This document shows positions 17,218 to 37,967 of a stretch of DNA of 64,000 nucleotides, one piece after another; position 1 is the first letter of the stretch, and each line of letters begins with the position of its first letter. The stretch is from NCBI RefSeq assembly GCF_044324785.1, contig NZ_CP172127.1. The stretch is one strand, 5' to 3'. Made by a program: the position numbers and the translations under genes. This DNA comes from Escherichia coli (GTDB lineage: Bacteria; Pseudomonadota; Gammaproteobacteria; Enterobacterales; Enterobacteriaceae). The notes beneath the pieces are model-generated. The model saw only the letters and a program-made list of their open reading frames with translations, was not told where the DNA came from and ran no database searches.

Positions 17218-17361
17218 GTGAAAAAGTTTCGATGGGTCGTTCTGGTTGTCGTGGTGTTGGCTTGCTTGCTGCTTTGGGCGCAGGTATTCAACATGATGTG
17301 CGATCAGGATGTACAATTTTTCAGCGGAATTTGTGCCATTAACCAGTTTATCCCGTGGTGA
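17218..17361 (+). CDS. mgrB: PhoQ-inhibiting small membrane protein MgrB (47 aa, GTG start)
   Basis: Hand translation from GTG: (M)[46 protein letters not shown]; ACGGAG Shine-Dalgarno 7 nt upstream; missed by the track (below 60 aa, non-ATG). Confidence 0.85.
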
Positions 17362-17435: not shown

Positions 17436-17723
17436 ATGAACGAAGTTGTAAATTCAGGCGTGATGAACATTGCGTCTTTGGTTGTATCGGTGGTGGTTCT
17501 TCTTATCGGGCTCATCTTGTGGTTTTTTATCAATCGTGCCAGTTCACGGACTAACGAACAGATTGAACTGCTTGAGGCGTTGCTGGATCAGCAAAAACGT
17601 CAAAATGCACTGTTACGTCGTTTGTGCGAAGCAAACGAACCAGAGAAAGCAGATAAAAAGACCGTTGAGAGTCAAAAATCGGTTGAAGACGAAGATATTA
17701 TTCGTCTGGTCGCCGAACGATAA
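17436..17723 (+). CDS. yebO: Small membrane protein YebO
   Basis: 95-aa ORF MNEVVNSGVMNIASLVVSVVVLLIGLILWFFINRASSRTNEQIELLEALLDQQKRQNALLRRL... Confidence 0.8.
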   Translation: MNEVVNSGVMNIASLVVSVVVLLIGLILWFFINRASSRTNEQIELLEALLDQQKRQNALLRRLCEANEPEKADKKTVESQKSVEDEDIIRLVAER

Positions 17724-18392
17724 TCCTTCCTCAATCTTGAGTAACCCCGTCGTTGAAGGGTTACTCAATTCATCCTGATTATACGCACTGCCATGGTGCA
17801 ACTGCTTCAAATTAAAACTCTGGTCTGACTTCAAATAATTATCATATTATTTATTTGCGTAACGGGATATCAGAAAAAGATATTTAGCCCATTAATTTAT
17901 TAGGATGTTTACATCGGATTTGTGATTAAGTGTGGTATTATTTATTAGCGAAACGTTTCTCTCTTGATTTTTTTGCGCATTCATCAATTTTTCTTATTTT
18001 AAATTTACAATACCTTTGGCGATTGACTTCTCTTTGGGGTGATTGATAGCCGTTAACTGACTGTTTTATGAGAAAAAGTGATATAACTTTTTATTCATTG
18101 CATAGCAGAAAATGTGATATTGCACGCACTATGTAATAACTTCTCCCATTGGCCTGGAACAACTGAACTTATTGAACTATGTTAGAAAATACGTCAGTTT
18201 AAGTATCTGCCTGAACTGGCAAGGTTAAGCACAATGATATATCGGCGCGTATTCCGTTGCATAAGTGTGCAAAAAAAGTGGAAGACGTATCGAGATTTGT
18301 GCGTCTGATCGAGACATGTTTAAAAATGGCTTGCCATAATTAACGTTGTATGTGATAACAGATTTCGGGTTAAACGAGGTACAGTTCTGTTT

Positions 18393-18536
18393 ATGTGTGG
18401 CATTTTCAGTAAAGAAGTCCTGAGTAAACACGTTGACGTTGAATACCGCTTCTCTGCCGAGCCTTATATTGGTGCCTCATGCAGTAATGTGTCAGTTTTA
18501 TCTATGTTATGCCTGCGGGCGAAGAAAACAATCTAA
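18393..18536 (+). CDS. yobF: Small protein YobF (47 aa), co-transcribed with cspC
   Basis: Hand translation [47 protein letters not shown]; stop 12 nt before the cspC start. Confidence 0.8.
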
Positions 18537-18548
18537 GGAATTTTTCAA

Positions 18549-18758
18549 ATGGCAAAGATTAAAGGTCAGGTTAAGTGGTTCAACGAGTCTAAAGGTTTTG
18601 GCTTCATTACTCCGGCTGATGGCAGCAAAGACGTGTTCGTACACTTCTCTGCTATCCAGGGTAATGGTTTCAAAACTCTGGCTGAAGGTCAGAACGTTGA
18701 GTTCGAAATTCAGGACGGTCAGAAAGGTCCGGCAGCTGTTAACGTAACAGCTATCTGA
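18549..18758 (+). CDS. cspC: Cold-shock-family protein CspC
   Basis: 69-aa [72 protein letters not shown] with RNP1/RNP2 motifs. Confidence 0.95.
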
Positions 18759-18803
18759 TCGAATCCACTGATCTGAAGTGTGAATACGCTTCAATCTCGC
18801 TAT

Positions 18804-18830
18804 AAAGCCTCGTCGAATGCGAGGCTTTTT
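18804..18830 (+). terminator. Intrinsic terminator after cspC
   Basis: aaagcctcg-tcgaatg-cgaggctttttt hairpin plus T-run. Confidence 0.8.
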
Positions 18831-18923
18831 ACTTTGCTTTCTCTTCGCTCCAGTCGTTCGGATATTTGCCCGCCGCGTGATTCGCGTTACACTTGCGGCC
18901 TTTAGTATCCTGCCGGAGTTGTC

Positions 18924-20296: not shown

Positions 20297-20525
20297 GACA
20301 ACGTCCTGACCGGGGTATCCATAAAACACATCATCGCCCCCAGCAAACATGCATACATGAACGACAAACCGCGATGGTTTTCGCGTTCATGCAGGCATAG
20401 CGATTGATGTGCATATGGTCTCGCCTGACTGAAAGTGTTCAGTCCGTACGTGCCACGTTTTGCAACGAGTATGTTGACACGTACATTTCCGGAATCTGGA
20501 AATCGGCTACTCCCCAAATGAGGGC
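20297..20525 (-). ncRNA. mntP 5' leader containing yybP-ykoY-type Mn2+ riboswitch
   Basis: Minus-strand leader contains the hallmark motif TTGGGGAGTAGCC (plus-strand 20507-20519 region) and an ...AGACCATATGCACATC... segment; known long Mn-responsive mntP leader. Confidence 0.6.
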
Positions 20526-20661
20526 GCAACCTTAACATATTTTGAGAATATAAAACAACTGTTGGAATATATTATTTCATTGCTTTATTGATAACGATTT
20601 TCATTTAGATTTATATATCAATGAAACGTTAAAATAAATAACAAATAAGGGAAGGGGTAAT

Positions 20662-20718
20662 ATAGCCTAAGCTATGTCTGATTATTAAAAATACACTAAA
20701 CATAGCTTTGGCTAAATT
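20662..20718. promoter_or_regulatory. Two MntR-box-like palindromes upstream of the mntP leader
   Basis: ATAGCCTAAGCTAT (perfect 5-bp arms) at 20662-20675 and AAACATAGCTTTGGCTAAATT at about 20698-20718, resembling the AAACATAGC..GCTATGTTT MntR operator. Confidence 0.45.
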
Positions 20719-20724
20719 GATAAC

Positions 20725-21183
20725 TTATTGAGTTGAAACGAGAAGCTTATAAATTTTTTCCAGATCGTCGATATTTCGAACGCGGATTAACAGCCGACGC
20801 TGTTCTAATTGCATCACCAACACGCCATCTTCCGACAAGTTCATCGCTTTGATTCGGCTATATTCAATCCAGACATTGGCGAAGAAAAAACCTTTTTGTT
20901 TAAAGATGATCTTCGGAACGCGGATCCAGAATATATAAAAACCCATCAGAGCCAGTGCACTTAATAACCATGTTGTTATTAGCGCGCCATGATTCGTGAC
21001 GTTGTTATAGATAAGAATGACAATCAATCCGACGAAGATAACGCTATCGATGCGACCACGCCGGAGCAAAGGAATTGCCAGCAGAGTGGGGCCGTTACGG
21101 CGGGGCATGATGAACTGATCGTAGATCGCGAAGGCCAGGAGTGCGGCGATGAAAAGAATCAGTACCAGGTCCGTGATTGTCAT
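20725..21183 (-). CDS. yobD: Inner membrane protein YobD (UPF0266)
   Basis: 152-aa hydrophobic [43 protein letters not shown]... Confidence 0.85.
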
Positions 21184-36236: not shown

Positions 36237-37922
36237 TTGAAGAAGGTTTGGCTTAACCGTTATCCCGCGGACGTTCCGACGGAGATCAACCCTGACCGTT
36301 ATCAATCTCTGGTAGATATGTTTGAGCAGTCGGTCGCGCGCTACGCCGATCAACCCGCGTTTGTGAATATGGGGGAGGTGATGACCTTCCGCAAACTGGA
36401 AGAACGCAGTCGCGCGTTTGCCGCTTATTTGCAACAAGGGTTGGGACTGAAGAAAGGCGATCGCGTTGCGTTGATGATGCCTAATTTATTGCAATATCCG
36501 GTGGCGCTGTTTGGCATTTTGCGTGCCGGGATGATTGTCGTAAACGTTAACCCGTTGTATACCCCGCGTGAACTTGAGCATCAGCTTAACGATAGCGGCG
36601 CATCGGCGATTGTTATCGTGTCTAACTTTGCCCACACTCTGGAAAAAGTGGTTGATAAAACCGCCGTTCAGCACGTAATTCTGACCCGTATGGGCGATCA
36701 GCTATCTACGGCAAAAGGCACGGTAGTCAATTTCGTTGTTAAATACATCAAGCGTCTGGTGCCGAAATACCATCTGCCAGATGCCATTTCATTTCGTAGC
36801 GCCCTGCACAACGGCTACCGGATGCAGTACGTCAAACCCGAACTGGTGCCGGAAGATTTAGCTTTCCTGCAATACACCGGCGGTACCACTGGTGTGGCGA
36901 AAGGCGCGATGCTGACTCACCGCAATATGCTGGCGAACCTGGAACAGGTTAACGCGACCTATGGTCCGCTGTTGCATCCGGGCAAAGAGCTGGTGGTGAC
37001 GGCGCTGCCGCTGTATCACATTTTTGCACTGACCATTAACTGCCTGCTGTTTATCGAACTGGGTGGGCAGAACCTGCTTATCACTAATCCGCGCGATATT
37101 CCAGGGTTGGTAAAAGAGTTAGCGAAATATCCGTTTACCGCTATCACTGGCGTTAACACCTTGTTCAATGCGTTGCTGAACAATAAAGAGTTCCAGCAGC
37201 TGGATTTCTCCAGTCTGCATCTTTCCGCAGGCGGAGGGATGCCTGTTCAGCAAGTGGTGGCAGAACGTTGGGTGAAACTGACTGGACAGTATCTGCTGGA
37301 AGGTTATGGCCTGACCGAGTGTGCGCCGCTGGTCAGCGTTAACCCGTATGATATTGATTATCATAGTGGTAGCATCGGTTTGCCGGTGCCATCGACGGAA
37401 GCCAAACTGGTGGATGACGACGACAACGAAGTACCACCGGGTCAACCGGGTGAGCTTTGTGTCAAAGGACCGCAGGTGATGCTGGGTTACTGGCAGCGTC
37501 CGGATGCTACCGATGAAATCATCAAAAATGGCTGGTTACACACCGGCGACATCGCGGTGATGGATGAAGAAGGATTCCTGCGCATTGTCGATCGTAAAAA
37601 AGACATGATTCTGGTTTCCGGTTTTAACGTCTATCCCAACGAGATTGAAGATGTCGTCATGCAGCATCCTGGCGTACAGGAAGTCGCGGCTGTTGGCGTA
37701 CCTTCCGGCTCCAGTGGTGAAGCGGTGAAAATCTTCGTAGTGAAAAAAGATCCATCGCTTACCGAAGAGTCACTGGTGACTTTTTGCCGCCGTCAGCTCA
37801 CGGGCTACAAAGTACCGAAGCTGGTGGAGTTTCGTGATGAGTTACCGAAATCTAACGTCGGAAAAATTTTGCGACGAGAATTACGTGACGAAGCGCGCGG
37901 CAAAGTGGACAATAAAGCCTGA
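36237..37922 (+). CDS. fadD: Long-chain fatty acid-CoA ligase FadD (TTG start)
   Basis: Track ORF 36171..37922 trimmed to TTG-initiated (M)[25 protein letters not shown]... (561 aa); AMP-binding motif [11 protein letters not shown] present. Confidence 0.9.
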
Positions 37923-37940
37923 GCGTTAAGTCAGTCGTCA

Positions 37941-37967
37941 GACGCCGGTTAATCCGGCGTTTTTTTT
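37941..37967 (+). terminator. Intrinsic terminator after fadD
   Basis: acgccgg-ttaat-ccggcgt hairpin followed by TTTTTTT. Confidence 0.85.

Follow-up and report, generated by a model that had tools for sequence, protein, structure and literature searches.

Results

The locus carries the known yobF-cspC operon

The window, a 64,000-nt stretch of Escherichia coli contig NZ_CP172127.1 (assembly GCF_044324785.1), carries on its plus strand a 47-codon open reading frame (ORF) that begins with ATG and ends with TAA at 18534-18536 (18393..18536, +), followed, after a 12-nt spacer, GGAATTTTTCAA (18537-18548, +), by a gene of 69 codons plus TGA (18549..18758, +). These positions confirm a first-pass annotation of this DNA, which had placed within 18393-18758 a 47-aa ORF ending 12 nt upstream of cspC on the same strand. 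The product of the ORF is 100% identical to K-12 YobF (b1824), and matches Pfam PF10736 (DUF2627/DUF2527) with 105 bits (cut-off, 25), residues 1-38 covering the 38-position model. The downstream gene is cspC (b1823), whose orthology is indicated by synteny with yobF and rlmA. It encodes a protein identical to K-12 CspC and 83% identical to K-12 CspE, comprising a cold-shock domain of ~70 aa (Pfam CSD PF00313, 114.5 bits).

Over 18243-18772, the window differs from K-12 at only four positions, all of them synonymous and within cspC, while the leader and spacer are identical. The neighbors are also those of K-12, with yebO upstream and rlmA and mntP downstream, so that the two differ in nothing substantive and the window carries another strain's copy of this locus. 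Of 5426 complete E. coli genomes, 5403 contain the region, with yobF annotated in 10/10 among the matches listed. Each of the 84 species-level loci, drawn from Enterobacteriaceae, Yersiniaceae, and Pectobacteriaceae, has cspC directly downstream of yobF on the same strand. The locus is the known bicistronic yobF-cspC operon, annotated in RefSeq and published, and the notion that it had been overlooked is accordingly incorrect. It is true that yobF was missing from the ORF track, but this reflects a length threshold only, as the ORF shows up when the minimum is lowered to 20 aa. With that setting, 46 ORFs fall wholly or partly on a 2.3-kb stretch, so an ORF of the size of yobF is not by itself evidence of a gene; what marks yobF as real is its identity to K-12 YobF, its Pfam match, its presence across E. 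coli genomes, and its constant position next to cspC.

A single transcript with a probable conserved promoter and a terminator downstream of cspC

Because the leader is identical to that of K-12, published 5' ends of the yobF-cspC mRNA (1907615-1907618 in K-12; PMC7075262) map onto the window, placing transcription start sites at 18366..18369 (+). A 5' UTR of 27 nt has been reported for yobF (PMC5230787). An extended -10 element, TG-T-GATAAC (18351..18359, +), precedes the mapped 5' ends by 7-12 nt and lies within a conserved block, GT(A/G)TGT(G/A)ATAAC. The hexamer TTGCCA (18331..18336, +), invariant in 12 aligned genera of Enterobacteriaceae, Yersiniaceae, and Pectobacteriaceae, is placed as a -35 element 17 nt upstream of the -10 element compatible with the published 5' ends. 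Together, TTGCCA and the extended -10 appear to constitute the yobF-cspC promoter. The first consensus promoter considered, GAGACA-18-CATAAT (18311-18340), was set aside, as its -10 hexamer is not conserved beyond Enterobacteriaceae and transcription from it would begin ~20 nt too far upstream to match the published 5' ends. Two promoters for the K-12 operon, yobFp1 and yobFp2, are listed in EcoCyc/RegulonDB, as cited in PMC13162491.

Downstream of cspC lies an intrinsic terminator (18804..18833, +) formed by a 10-bp stem, AAAGCCTCG...CGAGGCTTT, and a T-rich tail on its 3' side; the hairpin itself (18804-18828) aligns with the 3' hairpin of Rfam RF01766. Consensus scans of 18380-18560 revealed no terminator-like or promoter-like sequence, and the only terminator-like hairpin is the one 3' of cspC, in agreement with the first-pass statement that yobF and cspC are not separated by a terminator. 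According to PMC13162491, databases contain a predicted promoter internal to the operon, cspCp8, but a promoter scan inside yobF returned no consensus match for it. Co-transcription of the two genes, also proposed at first pass, is supported by these empty scans together with the published operon status (PMC8599858, PMC10965054), the transcript evidence itself coming from the literature. Deletion of yobF in Salmonella is polar on cspC (PMC8599858), and IS insertions in yobF in E. coli lower expression of yobF and cspC together (PMC13162491). A single mRNA would thus be expected to start at 18366-18369 from the conserved extended -10 promoter and to end at the terminator (18804-18833). Upstream of cspC, its 183 nt would then constitute a long leader, nearly invariant in Enterobacterales, with yobF as an ORF inside it.

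Initiation signals of yobF and cspC differ in predicted accessibility

The Shine-Dalgarno (SD) sequence of yobF, GAGGU (18376..18380, +), is unusually distant from the start codon, with 12 nt from its end (18380) to the AUG (18393), or 13 nt when counted from the GAGG core; the start context is AUGUG. Published data place its aligned spacing at 21, compared to 12-15 in most genes (PMC9841429). The predicted probability that this SD is unpaired at 37 C is 0.20-0.29, in contrast with 0.73 for the SD of cspC. The yobF SD is also covered by a putative pairing site for the small RNA OxyS, GGGUUAAACGAGGU (18367..18380, +), which contains a single mismatch relative to OxyS 5'-ACCUCUUUUAACCC. Pairing of OxyS near the yobF SD and repression have been reported, and this was proposed to lower CspC (PMC10965054). 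A whole-length duplex between OxyS and the leader, calculated with RNAduplex, was not better than that of shuffled sequences (70/500), while the local complementarity of 13-14 nt was retained, so that support for the OxyS site derives from the literature and this local complementarity. A second small RNA, CyaR, targets the 5' end of the yobF mRNA (PMC5861431). Given an SD that is distant, predicted to be mostly paired, and coincident with the OxyS pairing site, yobF is expected to be translated weakly.

The signals of cspC were read directly from the sequence. The stop codon of yobF is fused to the cspC SD, AAGGA, to give TAAGGA (18534..18539, +), and 9 nt separate this SD from the cspC AUG. 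The sequence TCTAAGGA is conserved regardless of whether yobF is still in frame at that point. Upstream of the SD, a small hairpin, U-GCC[UGCG]GGC-G (18510..18521, +), lies within yobF codons 40-43. Its GCC/GGC stem, which served as the search pattern, was matched in 55/55 unique sequences, with a fourth pair that is canonical in 48/55 and represented by five pair types (UG, CG, UA, AU, and GU). Loops are mostly YNCG (UNCG-like), and 13 nt separate the hairpin from the downstream cspC SD in 51/55 sequences. It is translated in E. coli-type loci but falls 3' of the stop codon in loci of the 38-codon type. These features suggest that cspC would be translated mainly from its own exposed SD, positioned 13 nt past the conserved YNCG-loop hairpin. 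CspC is known to be an abundant protein and, based on this abundance and on the features of the two SDs, cspC is likely the more efficiently translated of the pair. In ribosome profiling, the yobF-cspC operon was highlighted for an extreme inequality in translation efficiency between its genes (bioRxiv 10.1101/109264).

The position of the yobF stop codon varies among species

The position of the yobF stop codon was compared among 84 loci, 80 of them taken as top tblastn hits in a genome scan with an E. coli-like query, with four others added. With frequencies that are biased by this choice of loci, the stop falls 12-13 nt from cspC, with the TAA inside the cspC SD, in 42/84 loci, 23-26 nt upstream of cspC in 12/84, and 36-46 nt upstream in 27/84, while yobF overlaps cspC by 14 nt in 2/84 and is truncated in 1/84. 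In Yokenella, the stop occurs at codon 25, yet the nucleotides beyond it stay conserved. In the outgroups (three genera, four loci), yobF has 38 codons in every case and the gap to cspC is 36-41 nt. The geometry expected for coupling is therefore not conserved among orthologous loci, which fall into five stop classes.

Since the outgroups all have 38 codons, the 12-nt geometry is probably derived, resulting from readthrough by a TAA to TTA change at codon 39. Such a change would allow the ORF to continue to the next in-frame stop, making the position of that stop within the SD a lineage-specific accident, and coupling measured in E. coli or Salmonella would then not be generalizable to Klebsiella, which has the 38-codon form, or to Enterobacter.

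Constraint on the leader appears to act mainly at the nucleotide level

Nucleotide diversity in yobF was determined by codon position. For codons 1-38 of yobF, diversity is 0.042/0.036/0.042 at the three positions; for cspC it is 0.002/0.0007/0.147, a classical coding signature. Flanking sequence shows a diversity of 0.41-0.62, and third positions of rlmA, a rough synonymous-site baseline from 7 loci only, one of 0.52-0.55. Variant codons in yobF comprise 43 nonsynonymous and 7 synonymous changes (86% nonsynonymous, where random mutation would give 79%), compared to 7 nonsynonymous and 68 synonymous in cspC. Thus, neither the synonymous excess nor the third-position variability characteristic of protein-type evolution was found in yobF. 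A 24-nt block, CGTTGAATACCGCTTCTCTGCCGA (18437..18460, +), corresponding to yobF codons 15-23, is identical in 24/24 aligned genera, third codon positions included. Invariant blocks also occur at 18372-18390 and 18510-18521. Part of this block is paired by RNAalifold with CAGUAAAGAAGU, without covariation. Moreover, the differing C-terminal tails of YobF arise from one and the same conserved DNA read in shifted frames. An ORF on the minus strand or in another frame was considered as the source of the constraint and rejected, because diversity is flat across the three phase classes, which leaves none of the six frames with a coding signature.

The flat diversity over codon positions, together with the 43 versus 7 variant codons, implies that selection is mainly on the RNA or DNA sequence. 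On this comparative evidence, the constraint on the leader appears to act mainly on nucleotides and not detectably on the amino acids of YobF, a nucleotide-level pattern that is newly described here, and it would reflect a function of the RNA or the DNA. With regard to structure, the single-sequence fold of the leader gave z = +1.51, with 195/200 shuffled sequences folding at least equally well. In RNAalifold over 24 genera, the covariation term was -0.04; every long-range pair is invariant, and covariation is confined to the small hairpin. It is conceivable, and we propose it tentatively, that the conserved entity is a cspC promoter-plus-leader RNA of ~230 nt, in which yobF is a weakly translated ORF left open by chance, and the Pfam family largely a six-frame shadow of it.

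YobF as a possible independent small protein

An alternative is that YobF acts in trans as an independent small membrane protein that shares the cspC promoter, with no significance in cis and with nucleotide conservation that is incidental, arising, for example, from dense small RNA or protein binding sites and strong codon preferences. Evidence for this comes from work on a yobF deletion, which slows growth in low Mg2+ and is rescued by a plasmid copy but not by a copy with the ATG changed to TAA (PMC11429745). This requirement for the start codon implies an effect in trans of either the YobF product or translation of the RNA itself. His-tagged YobF was also expressed and fractionated with membranes, while a GFP fusion was cytoplasmic, which counts against a membrane protein (PMC11429745). 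YobF was additionally detected by epitope tagging (Hemm 2008/2010), and heat shock was reported to induce it at a post-transcriptional level (Hemm 2010), both as cited in PMC11429745. Consistent with a protein function, Siccibacter carries an in-frame deletion of 3 nt that preserves the frame.

In contrast, the 7 synonymous versus 43 nonsynonymous changes and the flat diversity over codon positions argue against this explanation, as does the fate of the hydrophobic tail, which is cut to 14 residues or frame-shifted in half of the species. The Kyte-Doolittle maximum of 1.15 over 19 residues is below the level of a transmembrane helix, and in Yokenella conservation of the nucleotides persists downstream of an ORF that ends at codon 25. 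We therefore consider it unlikely that YobF is solely an independent protein of this kind. Conversely, the in-trans phenotype of yobF counts against a purely nucleotide-level explanation, as it would not have been predicted from the flat codon-position pattern.

As described at first pass, yobF is a cysteine-containing ORF, with cysteines at positions 2, 30, and 40. The three are not maintained together across species: some have Y or N at position 2, S replaces the cysteine at position 30 in 33 loci, and C40 falls in the unconserved tail. The missing protein-type evolution leaves YobF in its HMM-defined family, but questions what that family represents.

Relationship to the cspA thermoregulator

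The leader could also sense temperature as a relative of the cspA thermoregulator, with alternative folds of its 183 nt that set the translation or stability of yobF and/or cspC in heat or cold, and with yobF incidental to this. Rfam RF01766 matches 18373-18833 with 139.7 bits against a gathering score of 78, and the small hairpin aligns with the cspA-model element GCCGAAAGGC at high posterior probability. Additionally, RNAalifold pairs the yobF SD, GAGGUAC, with GUGCCUC 95 nt downstream, and the heat-shock induction of YobF is reported to be post-transcriptional (Hemm 2010, as cited in PMC11429745). However, the leader alone (18330-18548) gave no cspA match even at E<=10, only noise, indicating that the RF01766 score comes from the coding region and terminator, and the homology to the cspA leader suggested by the full-length match was dropped following this search. 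The 5' portion of the full alignment has low posterior probabilities, and MAFFT alignment of the leader to the K-12 cspA and cspE leaders showed no convincing similarity. The K-12 cspE upstream region likewise holds no yobF-like sequence.

Between 30 and 45 C, predicted accessibility of the SD went from 0.16 to 0.26 with one 5' end and from 0.33 to 0.27 with another, small changes that do not resemble the opening of a thermometer. The proposed pairs are all invariant and thus lend no support to an SD/anti-SD helix. Furthermore, we take cspC to be a constitutively expressed rather than a cold-induced csp gene, which also counts against a thermosensor. Like the genes with 159-nt leaders (cspA/B/G/I), cspC is a csp gene with a long, highly conserved leader (183 nt here) and a small GCC-loop-GGC hairpin shortly upstream of the SD. 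Unlike the cspA leader, which contains no translated ORF, that of yobF-cspC does, and its modeling predicts no temperature-dependent refolding. Given these differences, a thermosensor strikes us as distinctly unlikely.

Possible influence of yobF translation on cspC

The proximity of the two genes raises the possibility of tight coupling, whereby cspC would be translated largely by ribosomes that terminate within its SD and reinitiate 12 nt further on, or that open an inhibitory structure, so that CspC output would be set by translation of yobF, a strong form of the first-pass idea. As in known translationally coupled pairs, the genes are on the same strand, separated by a 12-nt gap, and the upstream stop is fused to the downstream SD; the conserved hairpin 13 nt upstream of the SD would, moreover, be unwound by a ribosome translating yobF. 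The action of OxyS at the yobF SD, with a phenotype via CspC, is also compatible with coupling (PMC10965054), although mRNA decay or polarity explains this effect equally well. Unlike in coupled pairs, the geometry is not conserved, being restricted to 42/84 loci and missing in the outgroups, and the cspC SD is strong and predicted to be exposed unaided (0.73 unpaired), with a hairpin that excludes it. Furthermore, the yobF SD is poorly placed and predicted to be mostly paired, and the two genes are translated at very different efficiencies, extremely so according to bioRxiv 10.1101/109264, such that the trickle of ribosomes from yobF would be insufficient for an abundant protein. Tight coupling is, in our estimation, highly unlikely.

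The first-pass annotation had seen in the 12-nt distance a possible translational influence on cspC; as a designed feature this is disfavored by its occurrence, at 12-13 nt, in only 42/84 loci, by a cspC SD predicted to be 73% unpaired, and by the unequal translation efficiencies of the two genes. In the literature, we found no demonstration that this stop-start distance gives translational influence. Taken together, the sequence comparisons do not favor direct translational coupling from yobF to cspC. In E. coli, ribosomes finishing yobF would stop on the cspC SD and would have to unwind the hairpin, but the effect on cspC initiation may be small and modulatory at most, so that we infer weak coupling. 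Instead, yobF would influence cspC chiefly through the shared transcript, by promoter activity, small RNA-triggered silencing or decay, and the polarity of insertions.

Finally, yobF might be an attenuation-type leader peptide (like mgtL, tnaC, or pyrL) in which the progress of ribosomes on yobF controls transcription into cspC by a terminator/antiterminator switch or Rho access, for which one could cite a short ORF in a long conserved leader with nucleotides rather than amino acids conserved, the antitermination activity of CspC and CspE themselves (cited in PMC13162491), and the lowered cspC expression upon yobF deletion in Salmonella (PMC8599858) or IS insertion in E. coli (PMC13162491), but this is most improbable given that the stretch from the yobF start to cspC contains no intrinsic terminator, that a composition scan found no C-rich, G-poor rut-like stretch (GC skew never < -0.08), that alternative helices are without covariation support in a leader less structured than shuffled sequences, and that the position of the stop, on which attenuators critically depend, is spread over 60 nt in different species. 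The locus resembles leader small ORFs of the mgtL/mgtS type, which encode small proteins, in having a small ORF that precedes the gene for a regulator, post-transcriptional induction under stress (heat, low Mg2+), and targeting by small RNAs. It differs from them in that yobF is without attenuator structure, terminator, rut-like site, or purifying selection at the peptide level.

Discussion

Based on the data presented above, we think it likely that the locus as a whole is best explained as a shared-transcript operon in which yobF lies in a conserved leader and cspC is mainly self-initiated. The pairing of yobF and cspC adds nothing new in itself, since the operon is annotated, YobF has been detected experimentally, and both small RNA control and adaptive loss-of-function mutations have been published. 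What the comparison does add is that yobF, though called a conserved protein family, is without a coding signature, which calls for caution in using conservation as evidence for small proteins. The stop-position and nucleotide-conservation data, although by-products of this analysis, may prove useful for research on small proteins and on csp regulation.

If the conserved entity is indeed the promoter-plus-leader RNA, then the phenotype reported for the YobF peptide may be secondary, or may depend on translation of the RNA. The leader would in that case represent an undescribed cis-regulatory element, for example one providing single-stranded platforms for autoregulation by CspC and CspE, or alternatively platforms that serve other RNA-binding proteins and small RNAs. 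In either case, a very strongly constrained leader lies upstream of a gene for a global RNA chaperone that is a recurrent target of adaptive mutation.

Identity and organization of the yobF-cspC locus

The yobF ORF (18393-18536, + strand) runs for 47 codons from an ATG start to a TAA stop at 18534-18536, and a 12-nt spacer, GGAATTTTTCAA (18537-18548, +), separates it from the 69 codons of cspC (18549-18758, +). The stop codon is fused to the cspC Shine-Dalgarno (SD) sequence within TAAGGA (18534-18539, +). A 47-codon ORF is unremarkable by itself, as the 2.3-kb stretch around yobF is overlapped by 46 ORFs of 20 aa or longer. Its product, however, is 100% identical to K-12 YobF (b1824) and matches Pfam PF10736 at 105 bits (cut-off 25), while the 69-aa CspC carries a cold-shock domain (PF00313, 114.5 bits). 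The neighbors are kdgR, yobH, mgrB, and yebO upstream and rlmA, mntP, and yobD downstream; HMM score and synteny assign YobF to its family, and cspC is a bona fide CspA-family gene. Only four differences from K-12 were found across 18243-18772, all in cspC and all synonymous, and the 801 bases around the site are present in 5403 of 5426 complete E. coli genomes, with RefSeq annotating yobF beside a cold-shock gene. Since the locus is K-12 yobF-cspC itself, its existence was already known.

Consensus scans from the yobF start to the cspC start detected no terminator-like and no sigma-70-like sequence, and the only terminator-like hairpin lies 3' of cspC (18804-18828, +), where a T-rich tail follows it. 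The first-pass annotation had thus described the layout accurately: a 47-codon ORF, 12 nt from cspC on the same strand, with no terminator between them.

All E. coli records listed carry the RefSeq/PGAP name 'cspE' (transcription antiterminator/RNA stability regulator CspE) for 18549-18758. Since its product matches K-12 CspC exactly but K-12 CspE at only 83% identity, this name has been wrongly propagated. Other elements were also noted in the window. A Mn2+ (yybP-ykoY) riboswitch upstream of mntP (20427-20523, −) scored 41.9 bits against an Rfam gathering score of 45 and was absent from the whole-window gathering-threshold scan; it was recovered only when scanning by E-value. A palindromic element (~20648-20729) that lies between the mntP leader and yobD gave weak matches to several miRNA-hairpin models on both strands (E 0.01-1) and probably represents a REP-like sequence or some other long hairpin. 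Strong Rfam matches at 2740-2884 and 37881-37966 correspond to the overlapping antisense pair SraC/RyeA and SdsR/RyeB and to sroD, none of which is related to yobF-cspC.

The position of the yobF stop codon varies among species

Scanning a single genome for each species identified 186 YobF relatives, the best 80 loci of which were kept, and exact-protein look-ups supplied outgroup loci from Serratia, Rouxiella (two loci), and Brenneria. Among the resulting 84 loci (83 retrieved plus the window, after setting aside one retrieved locus without the yobF start), cspC directly follows yobF in every case, and the yobF stop falls into five classes. An ORF of 46-47 codons with a gap of 12-13 nt occurs in 42 loci (Escherichia, Salmonella, Citrobacter, Buttiauxella, Cedecea), 43 codons with a gap of 23-26 nt in 12 (Enterobacter, Lelliottia, Mangrovibacter), and 38 codons with a gap of 36-46 nt in 27 (Klebsiella, Raoultella, Kluyvera, Pluralibacter, Franconibacter, and the outgroups Serratia, Rouxiella, and Brenneria). 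Two loci (Huaxiibacter and a Leclercia MAG) have 56 codons and a 14-nt overlap with cspC, and one (Yokenella) has 24 codons and a gap of 83 nt. The differing C-terminal tails are one conserved DNA stretch read in different frames. Codon 39 is TAA in all three outgroup genera and TTA in E. coli, so the E. coli form is most simply explained by loss of a stop codon, so that yobF extends to the following stop in the same frame, which is the TAA within the conserved TCTAAGGA. The 12-nt gap would then be a derived, lineage-specific state rather than a conserved design.

Individual loci illustrate how the frame has changed. In Huaxiibacter chinensis (locus L050) and the Leclercia sp. MAG (L061), both at local positions 1501-1671, a 1-nt indel shifts yobF into a frame that passes across both the SD and the start codon of cspC, producing the 56-codon form with its 14 nt of overlap. 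In Yokenella regensburgei (L077, 1501-1672), a premature TAA replaces TAT at codon 25 and the leader nucleotides past it are conserved as in other genera, reflecting either natural loss of the ORF with the RNA kept or a sequencing error.

Conservation of yobF is at the nucleotide level

Nucleotide diversity across 80 aligned species was 0.62 far upstream, 0.10 in the promoter and 5' UTR, 0.040 in yobF codons 1-38, and 0.41 after cspC. By codon position, cspC displayed a textbook coding signature (0.002/0.0007/0.147), while yobF codons 1-38 lacked periodicity (0.042/0.036/0.042); as all three phase classes are flat, a coding signature is absent from every frame on both strands. Third positions of yobF were 3.5-fold less variable than those of cspC and ~10-fold less variable than those of rlmA (0.52-0.55, a baseline of only 7 loci). 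Distinct variant codons in yobF comprised 7 synonymous and 43 nonsynonymous changes (86% nonsynonymous, versus 79% expected from random mutation), compared to 68 and 7, respectively, in cspC. Locus selection relied on peptide similarity, a bias that would deplete nonsynonymous rather than synonymous differences and therefore runs against the 7-versus-43 result. Among the blocks identical across 24 genera in three families is CGTTGAATACCGCTTCTCTGCCGA (18437-18460). These patterns indicate that constraint on the leader and yobF acts on the nucleotide sequence, with additional amino-acid-level selection undetectable. Small counter-signs are an in-frame 3-nt deletion in Siccibacter and a frame that stays open up to and including codon 38 in 83 of 84 loci, although an open frame would be expected anyway given so little nucleotide change.

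Putative promoter and structure of the cspC leader

Published K-12 5' ends (1907615-1907618, PMC7075262; a 27-nt 5' UTR, PMC5230787) align to 18366-18369, giving cspC a 183-nt leader (18366-18548) that is mostly yobF. A putative −35 element TTGCCA (18331-18336, +) and, after a 17-nt spacer, an extended −10 element TG-T-GATAAC (18351-18359, +) fit these ends, and the blocks holding both show no variation across genera ranging from Escherichia to Serratia, Rouxiella, and Brenneria. GAGACA-18-CATAAT, the candidate proposed by the consensus scan, was rejected, as its −10 is unconserved beyond Enterobacteriaceae and the 5' end it implies is incorrect. Three promoters have been given for the operon: yobFp1, yobFp2, and an intragenic 'cryptic' cspCp8 (PMC13162491). 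Within the 670-nt yebO-yobF intergenic region (17724-18392), examined from 18273, conservation starts only near 18297, with diversity falling from 0.62 in 18273-18296 to 0.10.

The yobF SD, GAGGU (18376-18380, +), is separated from the AUG by 12 nt (13 nt counted from the GAGG core), an unusually long distance; its listed aligned spacing is 21, versus 12-15 in most genes (PMC9841429). The start AUGUG (18393-18397) is a context potentially permitting two-frame initiation; no ambiguity was predicted for yobF (PMC9841429). Partition-function folding at 37 °C predicted the yobF SD to be 20-29% unpaired and the cspC SD 73%. Overall, the leader has less structure than shuffled sequence (z = +1.51), and a composition scan found no rut-like C-rich stretch in it. 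Covariation supports only a 4-bp hairpin, U-GCC[UGCG]GGC-G (18510-18521, +). The GCC/GGC stem was itself the search pattern and was present in each of the 55 unique sequences. A canonical fourth pair occurs in 48 of these, in five types (UG 24, CG 11, UA 8, AU 3, GU 2), most loops are YNCG, and the distance from the hairpin to the cspC SD downstream of it is 13 nt in 51 of 55. RNAalifold also proposed pairing of the yobF SD (GAGGUAC) with GUGCCUC (18473-18479) and of CAGUAAAGAAGU with GCUUCUCUG (covariation term −0.04); since all these pairs are invariant, they are neither supported nor refuted.

Influence of yobF on cspC

It is quite likely that yobF influences cspC mainly through their shared transcript. 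The genes are treated as an operon, and a Salmonella yobF deletion is polar on cspC and complemented by a cspC plasmid only (PMC8599858). OxyS represses a yobF::gfp translational fusion by pairing near the yobF SD, with lowered CspC as the proposed outcome (PMC10965054, citing Tjaden 2006 and Hemm 2010), and the OxyS-complementary stretch GGGUUAAACGAGGU (18367-18380, +) includes this SD. yobF mRNA co-purifies with the sRNA CyaR (PMC5861431); the neighboring small genes mgrB (17218-17361) and yebO (17436-17723) are on the same list as yobF (18393-18536). In ageing colonies, the operon is a hotspot for adaptive IS insertions and nonsense mutations (PMC13162491), and a ribosome-profiling study cites it as an extreme of within-operon inequality in translation efficiency (bioRxiv 10.1101/109264). 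Events at the 5' end (promoter activity, OxyS or CyaR pairing, insertions, and ensuing decay) would be passed on to cspC, which would initiate at its own exposed SD and be translated at a far higher rate than yobF. An E. coli ribosome completing yobF would melt the 18510-18521 hairpin and end on the cspC SD, where it could transiently help or hinder initiation, but yobF ribosome flux is probably too small to matter for cspC.

The chief counter-evidence concerns YobF itself. The protein is detected by epitope tagging and, according to papers citing Hemm 2010, is induced post-transcriptionally by heat shock; low Mg2+ also induces it, and it is found in the membrane fraction when His-tagged and in the cytoplasm as a GFP fusion (PMC11429745). 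Deletion of yobF causes a low-Mg2+ growth defect that is rescued in trans by a plasmid copy, but not by an ATG-to-TAA copy (PMC11429745), which shows that yobF translation matters for more than cspC. Among the alternatives, YobF acting purely as an independent protein in trans is unlikely. A cspA-like thermosensor is quite unlikely: the locus matches the Rfam cspA model at full length (139.7 bits), but this score is carried by the coding region and terminator, the leader alone yields no cspA match in Rfam and aligns unconvincingly with the K-12 cspA and cspE leaders, and predicted SD accessibility is barely temperature-dependent. Strong termination-reinitiation coupling is very unlikely, as yobF-cspC resembles translationally coupled pairs in spacing only, a geometry not conserved among its relatives. 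A leader-peptide attenuator is highly improbable, no testable attenuator feature having been found in the leader. These alternatives are not all mutually exclusive. Of the earlier proposal of co-transcription with possible translational influence, the first part stands, given the operon literature and the lack of an intervening terminator or promoter consensus, while the 12-nt geometry is conserved in only 42 of 84 loci.

Literature searches found no discussion in print of the non-coding-like conservation of yobF or its variable stop; both add modestly to a known locus and do not amount to a novel type of system. An invariant leader with so little structure would be well suited as a platform to which single-strand RNA-binding proteins (CspC/CspE, Hfq, ProQ) and sRNAs bind, and we tentatively suggest, as a possibility short of the favored view, that the conserved object may be an undescribed cis-acting cspC leader RNA, with YobF as a by-product.
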